Source: an uncultured Clostridium sp. (GTDB lineage Bacteria > Bacillota > Clostridia > Ch29). Taken from it: a stretch of DNA of 64,000 bases. The notes under the pieces were generated by a model, which searched no databases, was not told the DNA's origin, and saw only the letters and a program-made list of their open reading frames with translations. Below are positions 7,842 to 64,000 of the stretch, in pieces. The translations under genes and the position numbers were made by a program. How positions within the stretch are numbered: the first letter of the stretch is position 1; each line of letters begins with the position of its first letter. Location of the stretch: the NCBI GenBank assembly GCA_964625335.1, contig CAZVBE010000009.1, positions 13,494-77,493 of the forward strand, in the 5' to 3' direction.

Positions 7842-7898
7842 TTTTGTTTACGGGGGGTACGAAATTCGTACGCAGATTTGCCAAAATACAAATCCGCT

Positions 7899-7972
7899 TT
7901 CACCCATAGTCAGGCAATTTACGGTCGCCTGGTAGAGACTTGCGGGCCAATCCCCGCCATTATATGAGTGAA
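7899..7972 (-). promoter_or_regulatory. Purine (guanine-type) riboswitch aptamer, G-box
   Basis: The reverse complement reads cactcatataatggcggggattggcccgcaagtctctaccaggcgaccgtaaattgcctgactatgggtg. This is a close match to the xpt G-box (P1 cactcata/tatgggtg, GGAU..GGCC loop, GUUUCUACC-like junction, CCGUAAAU loop, GACUAUG). Confidence 0.88.
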
Positions 7973-8001
7973 ACAAATTATTAGCTTGTCATTTCACTTT
8001 T

Positions 8002-23330: not shown

Positions 23331-24829
23331 AAAAATAAACTAATCCCCTGTATCTCTTCCAGTTTAAGCATCCCTTACTGACTTTAGAAACTGTGAAGCC
23401 CAAGTCCTTTTGCCGATATTTAAAATAGTTACGTTACCGATGGTTTCATGTGTTGTAGCCAGCTTACGTTTCCCTATAATCTCCCGGTCCACTTTTATTG
23501 CCCTTGCTTCATTTACAGTTGCTTTCTTCCTTTTCATAAATAAATCATAAATTCCCCCACCATTTGCTACAAAAACTCTTAATCTGGACATCTGGTCCAC
23601 TCCTTTTCTGCACCAGCCCAGGGGCCTTGAGCTTAATCTGGAAGACAGGATATGGCTAACATGACCTTCAGCACTACAGCCGGTGTAATCTAACTCATAC
23701 TGCCTTCTTATGCCTTCCCAGTTGCTTAGTATGTACCCTCTTGCTTCCTGCACAGCTCTCTTCTTTGTAACTGGCTCAGTTGTACTTATGATTGTATTAA
23801 AGAGCTCTTTTACACTATTCTTGTCACCGGCATTTATATAATCCCACATAATTGGTGTGGTGTAGCCCATATGCGCTGTAGCTTGCGTTACATACTTTGA
23901 TAAGTGATAACGGTCCAGTACGTAGATGCTTTCCTTTATCCAGCCTAGTCCATTCTTTATCCAGGGCGCACCATCACCTGATAGGTATATCTTTTCAATA
24001 CAATCCATATCATAAGCCTTATCTATGTAGTCCAAAACTTCCACCCATAGCTTGTCACTGTTTGCATAAACACCACTGAAATACCTTGCATTCGATAGCT
24101 TCCAGCGGTTTTCACCTACTTTCTTCCTGCCCTCATGCACATATACAAGCTTTGGTTCTATTGACCCTCCATCCTGAAGTGCCACATGATCTTCGTCAGC
24201 TTCTATGTAGAGTATCTTTACGGATCTTTTATCTTGCTTAATCTCTACTTCATCATTATCTACACTGCCAAGCTCACGTATACTGTTCATTACTGTCTGT
24301 GATGTAAGAGTTACTGCTTCAGAAGCTTTTTCTGCGCTTCTGCTGTAGGGCATAAATACTGCTTCTTCTATCAGTTTTGCCTTTAGTGAAGCATCAAGCT
24401 TATCATGGGCTTTTATGCCCACAGCTTCATCTGATAGATAGCTGTATTCACCGGTCTTATTATTTTCGTAATATGTTCTCTCATATCTGACTTCTCCAAA
24501 TATTGTCGTAAGGGTCTTTTTGGCTGCTTTTTCTTTTACTGTCCAGCTCCGTTTCCTGGCCTTACTGTTTTTATACGCTGCATCCAGTGTTTCCAAGGCT
24601 TCAGCCACTATTGTTACCCCAACCTCGTCTAACGTTTTCTTTGTGGCAAGGATGAATTCAGAGATGTCTTTTCCTTCTTCTATAAGACTTTTTAGCTCTT
24701 CTTCAAAGCTATCACTGATTTTTTGTATCATTTCCTGTATAATTAGTTCCATAAGAGTGTCTCCTTTTGAGTGATTTTGTGGGTCTGTTCAACTTCATGA
24801 TATCACAGGGGAGATACTCTTATTTTTTT
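23331..24829 (-). mobile_element. Insertion sequence of the ISLre2 (UPF0236) family, about 1.5 kb
   Basis: One transposase ORF flanked by imperfect terminal inverted repeats AAAAAATAA..CCCCTGT (left 23331-23356, right rc 24804-24829). The ends are approximate and the target-site duplication is not resolved. Confidence 0.7.
23364..24752 (-). CDS. ISLre2/UPF0236-family transposase
   Basis: 462-aa ORF MELIIQEMIQKISDSFEEELKSLIEEGKDISEFILATKK...YEN..., typical of UPF0236 transposases common in thermophilic Clostridia. Confidence 0.8.
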   Translation of the reverse strand: MELIIQEMIQKISDSFEEELKSLIEEGKDISEFILATKKTLDEVGVTIVAEALETLDAAYKNSKARKRSWTVKEKAAKKTLTTIFGEVRYERTYYENNKTGEYSYLSDEAVGIKAHDKLDASLKAKLIEEAVFMPYSRSAEKASEAVTLTSQTVMNSIRELGSVDNDEVEIKQDKRSVKILYIEADEDHVALQDGGSIEPKLVYVHEGRKKVGENRWKLSNARYFSGVYANSDKLWVEVLDYIDKAYDMDCIEKIYLSGDGAPWIKNGLGWIKESIYVLDRYHLSKYVTQATAHMGYTTPIMWDYINAGDKNSVKELFNTIISTTEPVTKKRAVQEARGYILSNWEGIRRQYELDYTGCSAEGHVSHILSSRLSSRPLGWCRKGVDQMSRLRVFVANGGGIYDLFMKRKKATVNEARAIKVDREIIGKRKLATTHETIGNVTILNIGKRTWASQFLKSVRDA

Positions 24830-27387: not shown

Positions 27388-28038
27388 CTAATTATATGTC
27401 TCCTCATCCCTTTGGTTTATCAAATAGGCCAGCACCCTTAAGCTTTCATTCAAATGGACGTTTTCCACAATAACGTCCTCCGGGACATTCAATATGGTAG
27501 GAGCAAAGTTCCAGATAGCTTTTATCCCTGAATTAACCAGCCTTTCGGCGGTTTGCTGGGCGGCTTCCCTGGGAGTACAGATAATGCCTACGTTAATGTT
27601 TTCACTTTTGATGAAATCTTCCATTTCATCTATGTCCATGATTTTCACCGTTCCGATTCTAATACCGACCAGCCGCGGATTCAAGTCGAACAAACCCTTA
27701 AGCACAAAGCCCGACCCCCTGAAACCGCTGTAATTTGATATTGCCTGGCCTAGATTGCCCGCTCCAATTATTACTGCATTGTTCTCCTTATGAATACCCA
27801 GTATATCTGCAATCTCATCCCTTAATTCCTTTACGTTGTAGCCATAACCCTGCTGTCCGAAACCGCCGAAGCAGTTTAAATCCTGTCTTACCTGGGAGGC
27901 ATTAAGTCCTAATCCCCTGCCAAACTCCTTTGAAGAAATCCGGGTTACTCCCTTCTCAACCAACTCGCCCAAATATCTATGGTATTTAGGAAGCCTCCTA
28001 ATAACAGCCATCGATACGTTGACTTTTTGTTTGTCCAT
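27388..28038 (-). CDS. rex: Redox-sensing transcriptional repressor Rex
   Basis: 216-aa ORF ...VIRRLPKYHRYL...IIGAGNLGQAI... with a winged helix plus a Rossmann fold. A GGAGAGGAG SD is present. Confidence 0.93.
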   Translation of the reverse strand: MDKQKVNVSMAVIRRLPKYHRYLGELVEKGVTRISSKEFGRGLGLNASQVRQDLNCFGGFGQQGYGYNVKELRDEIADILGIHKENNAVIIGAGNLGQAISNYSGFRGSGFVLKGLFDLNPRLVGIRIGTVKIMDIDEMEDFIKSENINVGIICTPREAAQQTAERLVNSGIKAIWNFAPTILNVPEDVIVENVHLNESLRVLAYLINQRDEETYN

Positions 28039-28111
28039 TCTATCACTCCTCTCCGGATATTATACCACGATTGCAACTATTTATTTCCATTATGCTATTG
28101 ATTATATCAAA

Positions 28112-28129
28112 TTGTTAAATTATTATCAA
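28112..28129. promoter_or_regulatory. Candidate Rex operator
   Basis: TTGTTAAATTATTATCAA against the clostridial Rex consensus TTGTTAAnnnnTTAACAA (2 mismatches). It lies in the rex/ABC-F divergent intergenic region. Confidence 0.4.
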
Positions 28130-28187
28130 TATGAGCCTGGCAATTTATTCAGTTTCTTTTAGGGCTCCACTTTGTTATAGTATAAGG

Positions 28188-28425
28188 AAAGGGGACACAC
28201 CGTTGCTAACGGGTATTCCTTACTACGGAATGTCCCCGATTGATAAGCTTGCAGGTCAGGGACACACCGTTGCATATAAGGTCAGGGGACACACCTTCAT
28301 AGCTGGTATTCCTTTATGGCCAAGGAATGTCCCCATTAGAATTCCTTTTTACGGAATGTCCCCGATTGATAAGCTTTCGGGTCAGGGGACACACCGCCAC
28401 CGCCACCATGTCCTTTGTCAGACTA
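28188..28425 (+). repeat. Cluster of four tandem, internally rearranged copies of a palindromic element GGGGACACACC...(GG)AATGTCCCC(GATTGATAAGCTT)
   Basis: GGGGACACACC occurs at 28191, ~28258, 28286 and 28385. AATGTCCCCGATTGATAAGCTT occurs at 28229 and 28356. Related single copies lie at 34504 and 61857. Confidence 0.85.
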
Positions 28426-28439
28426 ACCACTGTAAAGGG

Positions 28440-30353
28440 GTGATTAAACTGCCTGTACTATCATGTACTAATCTTATCAAAAGTTATGGTGTGGAATCAA
28501 TATTAAATAATATTAATTTTTATATACATCCCCGCGACAGGATCGGAGTTGTTGGAAACAACGGAGCGGGCAAGTCTACTCTGTTCAGGATAATCGCAGG
28601 GATTGAGCCTCCTGATTCCGGCAGCATAAATGTGATTGGCGGCGCTACCGTAGGTTTTCTCCCGCAGCACCCCGACTTTGAACCCGACGTTAAGGTATGG
28701 GAGCATCTTGTAAAAAACTTCGCACATCTTACCCAAATGGAAAACCGGATTAGGGAGCTCGAAATCCTTATGTCCCAGGTAAACGGCCGGGAACTGAAAC
28801 AGCTTATGAAGGAATATGGAGATATTACCGAAACCTTTGCCCAAAGCGGCGGCTATGAATATAAGAGCCTGATTCGGGGAGCCCTCAGGGGCCTGGGTAT
28901 ACAGGAAAGCCAGTTCCGGATGCCCTTAGGGCTTTTAAGCGGCGGACAGCAGACCAGGGTAGCTTTGGCGGAATTGCTGCTTAGAAAACACCACCTTCTG
29001 CTTTTGGATGAACCTACAAACTATCTGGACATAGAAGCCGTGGAATGGCTGGAGGGCTTTTTATCCGAATATGACGGAGCAGTTATGATAATATCCCATG
29101 ACAGGTACTTTCTGGACAGGGTGTGCACCAGGACCTTTGAGATTAGCGACGCCAACCTGTTTGAATTCCGGGGCAACTACTCGGATTATGTTTATCAAAA
29201 ACAGGTGATGCTTGAGGTGGAAACCAGACACTATAAAGACCAGCAAAGGGAAATAAAAAGACAGCAGGAAGTCATCCGCAGGCTGAAATCCTATAACAGG
29301 CAGAAAACGGTAAAAAGGGCCAACAGCCGGGAGAAGCTTCTTTCGCGTATCCAGCCCCTGGACAAACCCGGGGAGGATACCGGGAAAGTCGATATAAGAC
29401 TGGATCCGCTTATAAAAAGCGGCAGAAATGTGCTGGCCCTTGAGGATGTTTCGATGGCTTTTTCAAAAAACCATCTATTTGACGGTGTAAACCTTAGGGT
29501 TTACCGCGGAGAAATAATAGGCATAATAGGCCCCAACGGAATTGGAAAAACCACGCTGTTTAATATTATATCCGGCAAATTGGAGCCTGCCTCCGGCAAA
29601 ATTATAAGGGGGCATAATACCAATATTGAATACTACCACCAGCAGCAGGAAAATATAAATCCTGCCAATACGGTGCTGGATGAGGTTTGGGAGCAAAACC
29701 CCGACCTAAGCAATACCGCAACCAGGAATCTACTGGCTGCCTTTTTATTCAGCGGGGATGATGTATATAAAAAAATAGACTGCCTCAGCGGCGGTGAAAA
29801 AAGCCGGGTAGCCCTTGCAAAGCTTATGCTGTCCCGTTCCAATCTGCTACTGTTGGATGAACCGACAAACCATCTTGACATACAATCAAGGGAAGTGCTG
29901 GAGGATGCCCTTATAGACTATACAGGCACTGTGCTGGTGATATCCCATGACAGGTATTTTCTTGACCGGGTTACCACAAAAACCGCACAGTTCACTCCAC
30001 AGGGTATAACCCTTTATCATGGCAACTACAGCTACTACAAAATGAAAAAACAGCAGCAGGAGGAAGCGGAAAAACAGAAACCGAGGAACACCCAAACCAA
30101 AACGGCCCTTAAACAACAGAAGAAAAAGGAAAAGGAAGAAAGGGAGCTCAAAAAGCATGAGAAGGGGAAAATACTAAGACTGGAACAGGAAATAACCCGG
30201 TATGAAGAAGAAATACTCCGCCTGGAGCACCGGATGTGTCAGCCGGAAGTATATTCCGACCCGGATGAAATAAGAAAACTTACCACCACTTCGAAGGAAC
30301 TTAAGGAAAAATTGGAGGAACTTTATAAGCGATGGGAAGAAGCTGTGGAATAG
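28440..30353 (+). CDS. ABC-F family ATPase (Uup/YdiF-like, two ABC domains plus a C-terminal coiled coil)
   Basis: The ORF is open from 28131 but the N-terminal 103 codons are the repeat cluster. The likely start is the GTG at 28440 (MIKLPVLSCTNLIKSYG...), and that start is uncertain. It has Walker A GNNGAGKST and GPNGIGKTT and two LSGG signatures. Confidence 0.85.
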   Translation: MIKLPVLSCTNLIKSYGVESILNNINFYIHPRDRIGVVGNNGAGKSTLFRIIAGIEPPDSGSINVIGGATVGFLPQHPDFEPDVKVWEHLVKNFAHLTQMENRIRELEILMSQVNGRELKQLMKEYGDITETFAQSGGYEYKSLIRGALRGLGIQESQFRMPLGLLSGGQQTRVALAELLLRKHHLLLLDEPTNYLDIEAVEWLEGFLSEYDGAVMIISHDRYFLDRVCTRTFEISDANLFEFRGNYSDYVYQKQVMLEVETRHYKDQQREIKRQQEVIRRLKSYNRQKTVKRANSREKLLSRIQPLDKPGEDTGKVDIRLDPLIKSGRNVLALEDVSMAFSKNHLFDGVNLRVYRGEIIGIIGPNGIGKTTLFNIISGKLEPASGKIIRGHNTNIEYYHQQQENINPANTVLDEVWEQNPDLSNTATRNLLAAFLFSGDDVYKKIDCLSGGEKSRVALAKLMLSRSNLLLLDEPTNHLDIQSREVLEDALIDYTGTVLVISHDRYFLDRVTTKTAQFTPQGITLYHGNYSYYKMKKQQQEEAEKQKPRNTQTKTALKQQKKKEKEERELKKHEKGKILRLEQEITRYEEEILRLEHRMCQPEVYSDPDEIRKLTTTSKELKEKLEELYKRWEEAVE

Positions 30354-34428: not shown

Positions 34429-34503
34429 ACAACCACCTTCCTTAAGCCGTTTGGTATTAGCTTCTGTAGCCGGGAATATAATATACCCCAAACCTCATCA
34501 GCC

Positions 34504-34543
34504 GGGGACTTTCCGCAGCGATATGTCCCTATTGATAAATCAG
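34504..34543 (+). repeat. Copy of the GGGGAC...ATGTCCC.ATTGA element
   Basis: GGGGACTTTCCGCAGCGATATGTCCCTATTGATAAATCAG aligns with GGGGACACACCGCAGTATGTCCCCGATTGACAG at 61859. It ends 18 nt before the ATG of the next small gene. Confidence 0.8.
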
Positions 34544-47526: not shown

Positions 47527-47748
47527 AAAGTTTATCCGGCTGACCTGGTCTTTGACCCCACACTCGCCTGCTGCAGGTCTCGCTCCGGTTTTTATACCTT
47601 CACTACCCCCCGTCTCTGCTGAAGTTTAATAAAGCAGGCAGGACTTACACCTAAACCGCACCATGCTCACCGGCATTTTTGCCGGCTTACGTGGGTCGCT
47701 TCGCCTGCGATTGGCATCGACTTTCAACCACAGACCCGGATAAACTTT
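47527..47748. other. 222-bp GC-rich element bounded by a perfect 13-bp inverted repeat AAAGTTTATCCGG / CCGGATAAACTTT
   Basis: The terminal inverted repeat is perfect. The interior includes the hairpin ccggca-tttt-tgccgg. It is embedded in AT-rich intergenic DNA between hpf and the flagellar genes. Confidence 0.5.
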
Positions 47749-61152: not shown

Positions 61153-61785
61153 TCACAGTTTTTCCCTTAATTCCCTTATTTCCTTAAGCAGCATTGCTAT
61201 GTCCGACTTGGTGGCCGGATAGTTCAGGTAATCCACAGCATTGTTTGTGTTTAGCTCTGAAGCCCCGTTTATCCTCTGGTATAAAAAATGGCAGTTCCTT
61301 AAATGCTGGTTGACGTTTTTGATACTGTGCATACATTTTAAAGCTCTGCCATCCTTAAGTATTACCAGTGAATGCGTCCTCCCGGCCTCGGTTACATCCC
61401 TGACAGCCAAATAGTTAATATAGCCCCTGCAGGAATCGTTCTTTGAAATGACTTCCCTCATTTTTAACGGCATCAATATTGTATCTGGATTGATAGGCAG
61501 GGGAACAGCCCGTCTGCAGCCCAGTATTTCAGCATATTTCTTCCTTGAAGCCCCAAGGTCGACAGCATATTCTCTGGCGGTATTCTTAAGAACCGTTTTT
61601 ATTGTCCGGGGAATTACTACCGGTTCTTCGTCAAGGTATATCACCTCTGTGACATTACCCATACTGCTGTGGTAACAGGGAACAAGGGCAGCCATTGCCT
61701 TTTGTGCAGGAATGTCCAATTTGCCCAATCCACCAGCCTCCTTTACACGCATCGTATGATGACCTGCAGGACCCCGCCGATGCAT
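61153..61785 (-). CDS. comK: ComK-family competence transcription factor (start codon uncertain)
   Basis: The C-terminal half ...ILGCRRAVPLPINPDTILMPLKMREVISKNDSCRGYINYLAVRDVTEAGRTHSLVILKDGRALKCMHSIKNVNQHLRNCHFL parallels B. subtilis ComK. Several in-frame ATGs (61785, 61752, 61695, 61662) all have weak SDs. Confidence 0.65.
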   Translation of the reverse strand: MHRRGPAGHHTMRVKEAGGLGKLDIPAQKAMAALVPCYHSSMGNVTEVIYLDEEPVVIPRTIKTVLKNTAREYAVDLGASRKKYAEILGCRRAVPLPINPDTILMPLKMREVISKNDSCRGYINYLAVRDVTEAGRTHSLVILKDGRALKCMHSIKNVNQHLRNCHFLYQRINGASELNTNNAVDYLNYPATKSDIAMLLKEIRELREKL

Positions 61786-61856
61786 GTTAGACTTTATCCT
61801 TTGTCAAAACATTATAAGCGCTGTTTTGGCGTTTGGTGATAACCGGGCTTCAAGGG

Positions 61857-61895
61857 ACGGGGACACACCGCAGTATGTCCCCGATTGACAGTTCT
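61857..61895 (+). repeat. Copy of the GGGGACACACC...ATGTCCCCGATTGA element
   Basis: acGGGGACACACCGCAGTATGTCCCCGATTGACAGttc. It has a 7-bp GGGGACA/TGTCCCC stem and a 10-nt loop, and it sits between the DUF2922 gene and comK. Confidence 0.8.
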
Positions 61896-62637: not shown

Positions 62638-63828
62638 TTATATTCGTAAAGCCTGGCTTTTTAATGCCTGCACCTTGTCCAGCCGCTCCCAGGAAAGGTC
62701 TATGTCTGTCCTGCCAAAATGCCCGTAAGCCGCCACCTGTCTGTAGACCGGTCTCCTCAAATCAAGGTCCCTTATTATCGCTGCCGGACGCAGGTCAAAA
62801 TTCGCGTTGATAAGCTTTATTATGTCATCCTCCGCAATCTTGGATGTACCAAAGGTGTCCGCCATTATGGATACCGGCTTTGCTACGCCTATTGCATAGG
62901 CCAGCTGTACTTCGCACTTTTCGGCAAGCCCCGCAGCTACTATGTTTTTGGCCACGTATCTGGCTGCATAGGAAGCGGAACGGTCAACCTTGGTTGGATC
63001 CTTACCCGAAAAGGCCCCGCCGCCATGGCGGGCATAACCGCCATAGGTATCCACTATTATCTTTCTGCCCGTCAACCCCGAATCCCCCTGGGGACCTCCT
63101 ACCACAAACCTGCCCGTCGGGTTTATATAATACCTGGTGTTTTTATCCAGCAATTCCTCCGGAACAACCTTTTTTATGACATGCTCTGTCAAACCATCCC
63201 TTATTGTCTGTCCGTCGGCCTTGGGGTGATGCTGGGTGGAAATAACTATTGTATCAACCCGTACCGGCTTGTCCCCTTCATATTCGACGGTTACCTGGGA
63301 CTTGCCGTCCGGCCTGATATAGGGCAGTAACTTGGATTTTCTTACCTCAGCCAGCCTTCTGGTTAAGCCGTGGGCCAAATATATGGGAAGCGGCATATAT
63401 GTGTCGGTTTCGTTACAGGCAAATCCGAACATCATACCCTGGTCCCCTGCGCCCGTTGTATCTATATGGTTGCCGGTATCGCCCTGCTTTGCCTCAAGGG
63501 CCTTGTCAACACCCAAAGCTATATCGGGAGACTGCTCATCTATTGATGTCATCACTGCGCATGTATCACCGTCAAATCCGTACTTGGCCCTTGTATACCC
63601 AATCTCTTTAACGGTCTGCCTGACAATGCTGGGTATATCCACATAACACTCGGTACTAATCTCCCCCATAACCATAACAAGGCCGGTGGTCACCGCGGTT
63701 TCACAGGCGACCCTTGCATAGGGATCCTTGGTTAGTATTGCATCCAGCACAGCATCTGATATTTGGTCGCATATCTTGTCCGGATGTCCCTCGGTAACCG
63801 ATTCCGAAGTAAACAGCTTTCTGGCCAT
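62638..63828 (-). CDS. metK: S-adenosylmethionine synthetase
   Basis: 396-aa [35 protein letters not shown]...GGGAFSGKD. An AAGGAGGG SD is present. Confidence 0.97.
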
Positions 63829-63849: not shown

Positions 63850-64000
63850 GTAAAATAAAAAGCCCCCTTATGTATAAGGAGGTTATTATACCACCTTATC
63901 TTACAGAATATAAAATCCTGTGGGAATTGGCACCATAGCTCAAATACGCCGGTTGCCGGGTTTCATAGGGCCCTTGTCCCTCCACCTCTCTTGATAAGGT
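63850..64000 (-). promoter_or_regulatory. SAM-I (S-box) riboswitch upstream of metK. The aptamer runs to the window edge and may be cut by a few nt.
   Basis: The reverse complement of 63893-64000 reads accttatcaagagaggtggagggacaagggccctatgaaacccggcaaccggcg...ggtgccaattcccacagg...ctgtaagataagg, which is the S-box consensus (CUCUUAUCAAGAGAGGUGGAGGGAC...AUGAAACCCGGCAACC...GGUGCCAAUUCC). The expression platform 63850-63892 contains an anti-SD, CCTCCTTA. Confidence 0.88.

Follow-up and report, generated by a model that had tools for sequence, protein, structure and literature searches.

Work on repetitive extragenic palindromic (REP)-like elements and on their transposases has concentrated on Proteobacteria, with hardly any in Clostridia. 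BOX of Streptococcus pneumoniae (boxA-boxBn-boxC) is a modular intergenic repeat that is confined to streptococci; its modules are not nested in loops, and it has no known transposase. Among insertion sequences (IS), IS608 uses a GAAT 5' of the hairpin as its right-end guide, and the target of ISDra2 is TTGAT. Many CRISPR repeats combine a stem-loop with an AUUGAAA(C/G) tag. Here we analyzed a repeat array between the divergent rex and ABC-F genes of an uncultured Clostridium sp., within a 64,000-nt stretch of contig CAZVBE010000009.1 that we call the window. This array is very probably one locus of a multicopy, chromosomal, non-coding family of small palindromic repeats in Clostridia/Desulfotomaculia-type Bacillota.

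The array occupies 28181-28397 of the window, where reading of the sequence and a repeat search of the window located its arm modules. The left arm GGGGACACACC has exact copies at 28191, 28285 and 28385 and a copy with one mismatch (AGGGACACACC) at 28258, so the four copies of the original prediction are three exact and one near. The right arm GGAATGTCCCC is exact three times (28227, 28324 and 28353). A further long module, GATTGATAAGCTT, occurs twice as predicted (28238 and 28364), although only the second copy is followed by the expected CGGGTC and the first by CAGGTC. The arms are inverted repeats (I3, I5 and I7 in the repeat search), which bears out the description of the region as rearranged palindromic modules. 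When up to one mismatch was allowed, each arm motif had 7 matches in the window compared to 0.84 and 1.42 expected. None of 100 shuffles reached 7, which excludes chance. The array region also folds more stably than shuffled sequence (z = -4.1).

We built a covariance model (R1) from an alignment of 39 full copies of the element (A1). Together with the repeat search and the minimum free energy (MFE) fold, it resolves the array into a 5' flank, a unit of type A, a linker, a composite unit in which a type B hairpin is nested in a type A unit (A[B]), a second linker and an extra left arm (L'):

28181-28190, plus strand: constant 5' flank TATAAGGAAA, family consensus uuaaaGGAAu, positions 1-10 of R1.
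28191-28237, plus strand: unit 1, type A hairpin GGGGACACACC-GT...AC-GGAATGTCCCC; R1 match 28181-28247, 76.8 bits, E = 1e-23; inverted repeat I3.
28238-28258, plus strand: GATTGA tail and linker TAAGCTTGCAGGTCA; direct repeat D1; the same linker stands between units at many loci.
28259-28363, plus strand: composite unit A[B]; R1 match 28275-28373; the MFE fold puts the inner hairpin inside the outer one.
28364-28384, plus strand: GATTGA tail and linker TAAGCTTTCGGGTCA; direct repeat D1.
28385-28397, plus strand: additional left arm L' GGGGACACACCGC at the end of the array, where the next unit is truncated; the same ending is found at loci L033, L046, L047, L075, L090 and L098.
28398-28426, plus strand: 29-nt stretch CACCGCCACCATGTCCTTTGTCAGACT, not present in the sister species (comparison with L122).

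The outer type A halves of the composite are 28259-28284 and 28341-28363. Its inner type B hairpin (28285-28334) has flanks of its own, aTAAGGTCA and ATTAGA. What had been described as four tandem units is therefore unit A, the composite A[B] and an extra left arm. The 29 nt at 28398-28426 are either a decayed short unit or junk. We agree with the earlier observation that CRISPR-like regular spacing is missing, as the sequences between the arms are themselves repeated and a k-mer scan found no CRISPR-type array; the only regular array, at L118, is built of identical 83-nt units.

The element is dispersed far beyond this locus. The genome-wide pattern search proposed with the original prediction, run here with GGGGACAC-N6-36-TGTCCCCGATTGA on one genome per species, returned 51 genome loci, and 66 more came from metagenomes, many of them from the JGI digester study that includes this contig. 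About 40 of the genome loci are in Bacillota, in metagenome-assembled genomes (MAGs) as well as isolates, with matches of 52-57 nt. Carriers include Desulfotomaculaceae, Pelotomaculum (P. propionicicum C1 among them), Peptococcaceae, Caldicoprobacterales and several 'Clostridiales' digester bins. At least 14 of the pattern-scan loci are in a single MAG (CAZGUG), and 3 loci are in the 64-kb window. At E < 1e-3, R1 detects 73 copies in the genome loci, and the element occupies more than 60 non-redundant intergenic sites across Bacillota MAGs and digester metagenomes. The suggestion of a family resembling REPs and bacterial interspersed mosaic elements (BIMEs), or miniature transposable elements with inverted repeats (MITEs), thus holds in the sense of dispersed small palindromic intergenic repeats. 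About 11 pattern matches fall in other phyla (Acidobacteriota, Proteobacteria, Omnitrophota and others) and are short perfect hairpins. By our estimate some 8 such matches are expected by chance for the GATTGA tail, and we treat them as unrelated REP-like hairpins rather than family members.

Phage records, viral contigs and plasmids contained no copies of the element. Rfam families at gathering score did not match it in the whole window or in 17 related loci, and a search of 28000-28600 at E <= 10 gave only noise, including CRISPR direct-repeat families. Literature on the arm sequences and on REPs, REP-associated tyrosine transposases (RAYTs) and MITEs in Firmicutes yielded no description of the element. 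A survey of REPs with GTAG/CGTC does not mention Clostridia or cover the element.

In the window, R1 recovers three good copies and one decayed copy. Those outside the array are:

61849-61892, plus strand: second copy, in the minimal short-loop form GGGGACACACCgcagtaTGTCCCC GATTGA; R1 41.2 bits, E = 2e-11.
34494-34540, minus strand: decayed copy AGGGACATATCGCTGCGGAAAGTCCCC GGCTGA; R1 16.9 bits, E = 0.0045 with filters off, a weak match.

The copy at 61849-61892 lies between DUF2922 and comK and is antisense to both. In relatives this slot is taken by a GC hairpin unrelated to the element (L130) or by another MITE (L131). The comK gene (61153-61785, minus strand) encodes a ComK-family competence regulator (PF06338) and sits in the conserved block metK - DUF1659 - DUF2922 - comK - recD2. 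The 5' side of the decayed copy at 34494-34540 adjoins the Shine-Dalgarno sequence (SD) and start of a divergent gene.

Three other repeats were noted. A tandem array at L118 (23-290) comprises at least three identical 83-nt units (the hairpin plus GATTGAAAGTTCGCCGTGGCGATGTTGTGTAC) and is a lineage-specific variant with a different linker. A separate 28-nt hairpin family, GGGGACACAATACT(G/C)TGTCCCCGATTGA, is found at L066, L068, L072 and L106 (Ga0315281/Ga0315282/Ga0316628 contigs), with an inverted partner near some copies; it shares foot and tail with the element but not the Bacillota context. A separate MITE-like family of ~190 nt with true terminal inverted repeats (TIRs), GGCTTCATGAA, occurs at L004 (~2100-2330), L076 (~2360-2590) and L131 (~1240-1400). 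It carries the hairpin in its center at L004 and L076, and it is the hairpin-less copy that fills the DUF2922-comK slot at L131.

Across the family, the consensus reads TAAGGnAt-GGGGACACACC...GGAATGTCCCC-GATTGA with a hairpin of ~55 nt. A unit consists of the constant 5' flank of ~10 nt (TAAGGnAt / uuaaaGGAAu), the hairpin and the GATTGA tail, which in this lineage is followed by a 15-nt linker. The hairpin combines a conserved foot (GGGGACA/TGTCCCC) and a conserved internal 2x2 mismatch (CA/AA) with an inner stem of 4 bp and a loop that varies from 4 to 30 nt. Compensatory substitution gives the inner stem as CCTC/GAGG, CCGC/GCGG, CCGT/ACGG or CCTT/AAGG. One inner-stem pair is UA 38 times, GC 16 times and CG 6 times, and the next is CG 47 times, UA 8 times and AU twice. 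Over 71 distinct copies, 97.7% of cells pair in the extended single hairpin and five stem pairs show double changes; none of 500 shuffles matched the covariation score. The hairpin is under constraint.

The two nested sub-hairpins of the original prediction exist in this copy and are specific to a subfamily, the type A units. Across the 39 aligned copies, only 71-74% of their cells pair, which is little above shuffles, and the three-way junction that they imply was dropped as a family feature. G-U and A-C exceptions in the stem are both rare and without strand bias, so that neither strand is marked as a functional RNA. Units occur alone, in direct tandem arrays, or nested in the loop of another unit.

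We compared the locus with four syntenic relatives whose ABC-F proteins are 69-75% identical and which lack the element; it is absent throughout L121-L126. They keep the gene order GDH-Asp23-rex / ABC-F-asparaginase, a palindrome resembling a Rex box, the extended -10 TGTTAAAAT and the SD. Their rex-to-ABC-F intergenic region measures 180-291 bp, compared to 401 bp in the window. The empty site in a relative reads TTATTGAA at the insertion point, and the homologous stretch AACCACTG..GGGGTGAT resumes in the window after 28426. The 5' flank of the array is missing from the empty site, while the same sequence is found at unrelated loci. At the comK locus, a second empty-site comparison was attempted, and the relatives are too diverged (58-66% protein identity) to set boundaries.

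The array also varies among close strains. With identical flanks and proteins, it reads A+L' (L129), A[B]+L' (L127), A+A[B]+L' (the window) or A+A+A[B]+L' (L052 and L053), that is, one unit, one composite unit, two units or three. Upstream of trxB, one unit at L115 compares with two at L014 and L080. These alleles differ from one another by whole units only, and we infer that units are gained and lost by recombination or slippage between direct repeats. Many arrays can be written as L..L[L R]R..R, left halves being about as numerous as right halves (5 left and 4 right at L002, 3 and 2 at L030, 2 and 2 at L026). The inner and outer units of the nest in the window are of different subtypes; therefore, this nest reflects insertion and not local duplication. 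The composite A[B] recurs with the same junctions at six or more loci (at least L007, L075, L093, L098, L109 and the window), so nesting was a rare event, with the composite spreading afterwards. Arrays share a constant 5' start but have a ragged 3' end: some stop after GATTGAT, some within the linker, some within the next loop and some, the window array among them, after an additional left arm. At one orthologous slot in species that are ~87% identical (L058 compared to L071), the unit can be of type A or of type B, which suggests replacement or gene conversion.

All copies are intergenic. Their orientation to genes is mixed, with 16 sense, 11 antisense, 7 divergent and 6 convergent. The neighbors are unrelated housekeeping genes that by sequence resemble thiolase, thioredoxin reductase, phosphotransbutyrylase, MogA, AlaRS and SerRS. 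Pfam assigned recurrent neighbors to histidine kinases, ABC ATPases, SpoIID, catalase, a sigma factor and LonB, and the genes between two facing arrays at L002 resemble, by eye, the sporulation genes yabP/yabQ. All-against-all clustering of 253 and then 637 neighboring open reading frames (ORFs) returned syntenic housekeeping families only and no associated gene. Two recurrent settings involve RNA genes or leaders. The 23S-5S rRNA spacer carries one or two sense units (L091, 3771-3867; also L028, L055, L095, L108 and L120) whose number and subtype vary between operons or strains. In the T-box leader of a serS-like gene, the element lies antisense between the terminator and the SD (L089, element 389-442 and T-box 495-702; also L018 and L095).

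At the ABC-F gene, the array bears on both the promoter and the annotated protein. The relevant features are:

28112-28129, no strand assigned: palindromic candidate operator TTGTTAAATTATTATCAA resembling a Rex box; host sequence outside the repeat, conserved in all four syntenic species (alignment A3).
28173-28181, plus strand: predicted extended -10 TGtTATAGT of the ABC-F promoter; aligns with the TGTTAAAAT block of L122, L125 and L126.
28434-28451, plus strand: ABC-F ribosome-binding site (RBS) AAAGGGGTGAT with candidate starts GTG 28440 and CTG 28449; aligns with GGGGTGAT-n4-TTG and AAGGAGTGA-n8-TTG of the relatives.

The -10 directly abuts the 5' flank of the array and would place the transcription start at ~28187-28190. 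Since the array lies between this predicted promoter and the RBS, it should belong to the 5' untranslated region (UTR) of ABC-F, and it is probably transcribed as a highly structured 5' UTR of 140-330 nt. In the MFE fold, the 29 nt at 28398-28426 pair with the SD (CACC..UCCUUU with AAAGGG..GGUG; region 28398-28444), and the array insertion may have changed the accessibility of the start site for ABC-F translation. The palindrome TTGTTAAATTATTATCAA, a putative Rex site on the basis of the clostridial Rex consensus, overlaps the rex promoter, which lies on the minus strand and is close to consensus (TTGATA-17-TATAAT, 11/12, with TG; region 28089-28129). Its conservation in four species suggests autoregulation of rex and possibly Rex control of ABC-F.

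The ORF at 28131-30353 (740 aa) begins at ATG 28131, runs in frame through the array and has 103 codons upstream of GTG 28440. ABC-F homologs are 632-640 aa long, with 10-13 residues ahead of the KSYG motif. Publicly called lengths of this protein are 665, 674, 707 or 716 aa and track the array allele. These comparisons uphold the view that the N-terminal extension is artefactual and that the true start lies just past the array. Two codons are candidate starts. GTG 28440, favored by the original prediction with some reservation, stands 13 residues before KSYG and fits the homologs (P0004 and P0005). Its rival, CTG 28449, corresponds by homology to the TTG at which the sister species starts, and its distance from AAAGGGGTGAT is more favorable.

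How the family spreads can be sketched as follows. Elements were inserted between the -10 box and the RBS of ABC-F, and the array gains and loses whole units, probably through recombination or slippage between direct repeats. New sites could be reached if a trans-acting enzyme, acting on single-stranded DNA much as an HUH/Y1 transposase does, read the hairpin foot together with its conserved flanks. By analogy with REP/RAYT systems and IS200/IS605 ends, we consider spread by such an enzyme conceivable, if rather doubtful. We hold it to be improbable that the family is instead a new type of mobile or domesticated element with an enzyme other than RAYT. Such an element would insert into its own loop or directly after itself, have a copying step that begins at a fixed 5' end and terminates variably, and be targeted upstream of the RBS or selected there as a portable 5'-UTR stem-loop. 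A constant head and a ragged tail are what rolling-circle or processive copying would be expected to leave in that case.

Several points weigh against a small palindromic repeat that simply spreads. We found no transposase, RAYT or other recurrent gene within 5-10 kb of ~100 loci, and an HUH..Y regular expression and phmmer with E. coli RayT (E <= 10) found nothing in ~1 Mb of loci plus the window. Target-site duplications (TSDs) were found at none of the loci, the flanks being the conserved and non-identical TAAGGnAt and GATTGA at all of them. Within the 8-14-kb loci there was no autonomous parent, nor any gene bracketed by a left and a right arm. Because the search pattern demanded the outer stem, its invariance partly reflects ascertainment. 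The single clean comparison of an empty with a filled site has flanks of ~87% identity, so its boundaries are approximate. The array alleles were read from metagenomes assembled from short reads (k141 contigs), and such assemblies are able to collapse or expand 68-bp repeats. Among 62 non-redundant arrays, 15 have the constant 5' flank at a distance of 9-21 nt from the reverse-complemented SD and start codon of an opposite-strand gene, which puts the hairpin just upstream of the RBS in those mRNAs, and the decayed window copy at 34494-34540 has the same arrangement. The cause is either a preference of the insertion machinery for this position or the retention of such copies. The serS-leader element is kept at an orthologous site in three species that are ~80% identical. 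Persistence at orthologous sites and the SD-proximal bias hint at selection or function over pure selfish spread. Sequences 5' of the element are T/A-rich without a fixed target. The window does hold a UPF0236 (PF06782) gene, presumably of an ISLre2-type transposase family (462 aa, ~23364-24752, minus strand, ~3.3 kb from rex), which is present in all strains compared and is not flanked by the arms.

The RBS-proximal copies, including the decayed one, are also what might be expected if the units were functional RNA modules: portable 5'-UTR or intercistronic stem-loops that stabilize or insulate mRNA, or sites for a hairpin-specific ribonuclease, with hosts keeping the copies adjacent to an RBS. 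We regard this as unlikely, even though the retained serS-leader copy, the sense copies within rRNA operon spacers, the other hairpins that relatives hold in the comK slot and the start of the ABC-F array a few nt from the predicted transcription start all fit it. The stem-loop followed by GAUUGAAAU moreover resembles the tag of CRISPR repeats. However, neither a CRISPR direct-repeat family nor any other Rfam family matches. The element occurs in both orientations, so no single RNA strand is conserved, and G-U and A-C exceptions are both rare, with no strand bias. The copy in the serS leader at L095 has a right arm one base short and is apparently decaying, and ABC-F in the sister species does without the element altogether.

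The remaining explanations concern this locus alone. A dedicated cis-regulatory leader of ABC-F, such as a riboswitch or a ribosome-mediated attenuator of the kind found in antibiotic-resistance ABC-F genes, would account for an array between promoter and SD with z = -4.1 and a 3' end able to pair with the SD. Yet the same leader in four syntenic relatives lacks the array, dozens of unrelated genes have the element beside them in either orientation, and unit number differs between strains. Moreover, neither an Rfam match nor a leader peptide with an SD was found. The structured ABC-F leader offered by the original prediction is therefore not sustained, and we consider such a leader very improbable. 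Even less credence goes to a genuine repeat-encoded N-terminal extension of ABC-F. An in-frame ORF from ATG 28131 and public calls of 665-716 aa speak for it; but all homologs are 632-640 aa with a start 10-13 residues before KSYG, the length shifts with the array allele, and what would be translated is a non-coding repeat that other loci carry in either orientation. A purely local origin, by tandem duplication or as an assembly artefact, with no wider family is likewise hardly believable and is refuted by the dispersed copies. Copy number does differ among assemblies of the same strain population, but independent assemblies (JGI, ENA and NCBI MAGs) from many samples and taxa have the element at many loci, and the units in the array are of different subtypes. 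The element is neither a dedicated ABC-F regulator nor translated.

Other features of the window were recorded. Rfam reported three RNAs above gathering score, all on the minus strand: a raiA RNA at 47531-47744 (190 bits), a purine riboswitch at 7887-7987 and a SAM riboswitch at 63893-64000, directly upstream of metK (62638-63828, minus strand). GC skew on the plus strand is negative throughout (-0.07 to -0.20), so the minus strand is probably leading; no origin or terminus lies in the window, and three copies are too few for a test of replication-strand bias.

The repeat family has practical consequences. It is widespread in anaerobic-digester and subsurface Bacillota, and self-nesting and an RBS-proximal bias without an identified partner enzyme make it a tractable entry to how repeats spread and affect mRNAs. 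Its hypervariable arrays might be used to tell strains apart in metagenomes, and short-read assemblies will probably break at them. In public calls of this ABC-F, 28-79 false residues are added at the N terminus (103 at most, in the maximal ORF), a number that depends on the repeat allele, and the same is to be expected at other carrier loci.

Compared with known systems, the element resembles the REP/BIME and REPIN-RAYT repeats of Enterobacteria and Pseudomonas in several respects. Both are short multicopy extragenic imperfect palindromes with a conserved hairpin foot and flanking nucleotides. Both cluster into mosaics whose linkers are conserved, are kept at orthologous sites, are non-coding and lack a TSD. 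Unlike REPs, the element has no GTAG/CGTC tag, its 5' flank AAGGnAt leading directly into GGGGACA. Its units are in direct tandem or nested rather than alternating or inverted, with a single inverted pair seen (L031/L051). Its hairpins are longer (47-57 nt; minimal forms 24-38 nt), and it resides in Bacillota, with no RAYT in ~1 Mb. BOX is likewise a Firmicute intergenic repeat with a constant head, variable tandem modules, a strong fold, a position near gene starts and no TIR/TSD transposition. Its sequence is unrelated, however, and the element differs in nesting within loops and in spanning several orders of Clostridia and Desulfotomaculia.

MITEs such as Correia, RUP and ERIC are also small, non-coding, fold-back, dispersed, intergenic and able to alter 5' UTRs, and their TIRs have a counterpart in the hairpin arms GGGGACACACC / GGAATGTCCCC, which are inverted repeats of 11-15 bp. 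In contrast to MITEs, the element has no TSD or matching parent IS, and its conserved flanks are asymmetric (TAAGGnAt compared to GATTGA). Hairpin elements derived from IS200/IS605 (PATEs), which go with Y1 HUH transposases, share the hairpin with short conserved flanks at its foot, reminiscent of the guide and cleavage-site logic of IS608 ends, and the lack of TIRs and TSDs, and the TTGAT within GATTGAT equals the ISDra2 target; here there is one hairpin rather than distinct left and right ends, and no TnpA/TnpB was found nearby. Integron attC sites and CRISPR repeats share direct arrays of hairpin sites, and the ATTGAAA-like tail resembles the 3' tags of CRISPR repeats. The element differs from them in having no cassettes or unique spacers, loops that are alike and no R'/R'' core sites. 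No integrase or cas genes were found near it, and no CRISPR direct-repeat family of Rfam matched it. We rejected formal membership in REP/BIME, given no GTAG tag, no alternating orientation and no RAYT found in ~1 Mb of loci, and in the MITEs, given no TSD and no parent IS found within the 8-14-kb loci. Since the defining tests of both fail, the element is a variant of small dispersed palindromic repeats that falls outside the named families. On our best reading, it behaves like REP/BIME, BOX or MITE elements and represents a family not previously curated.

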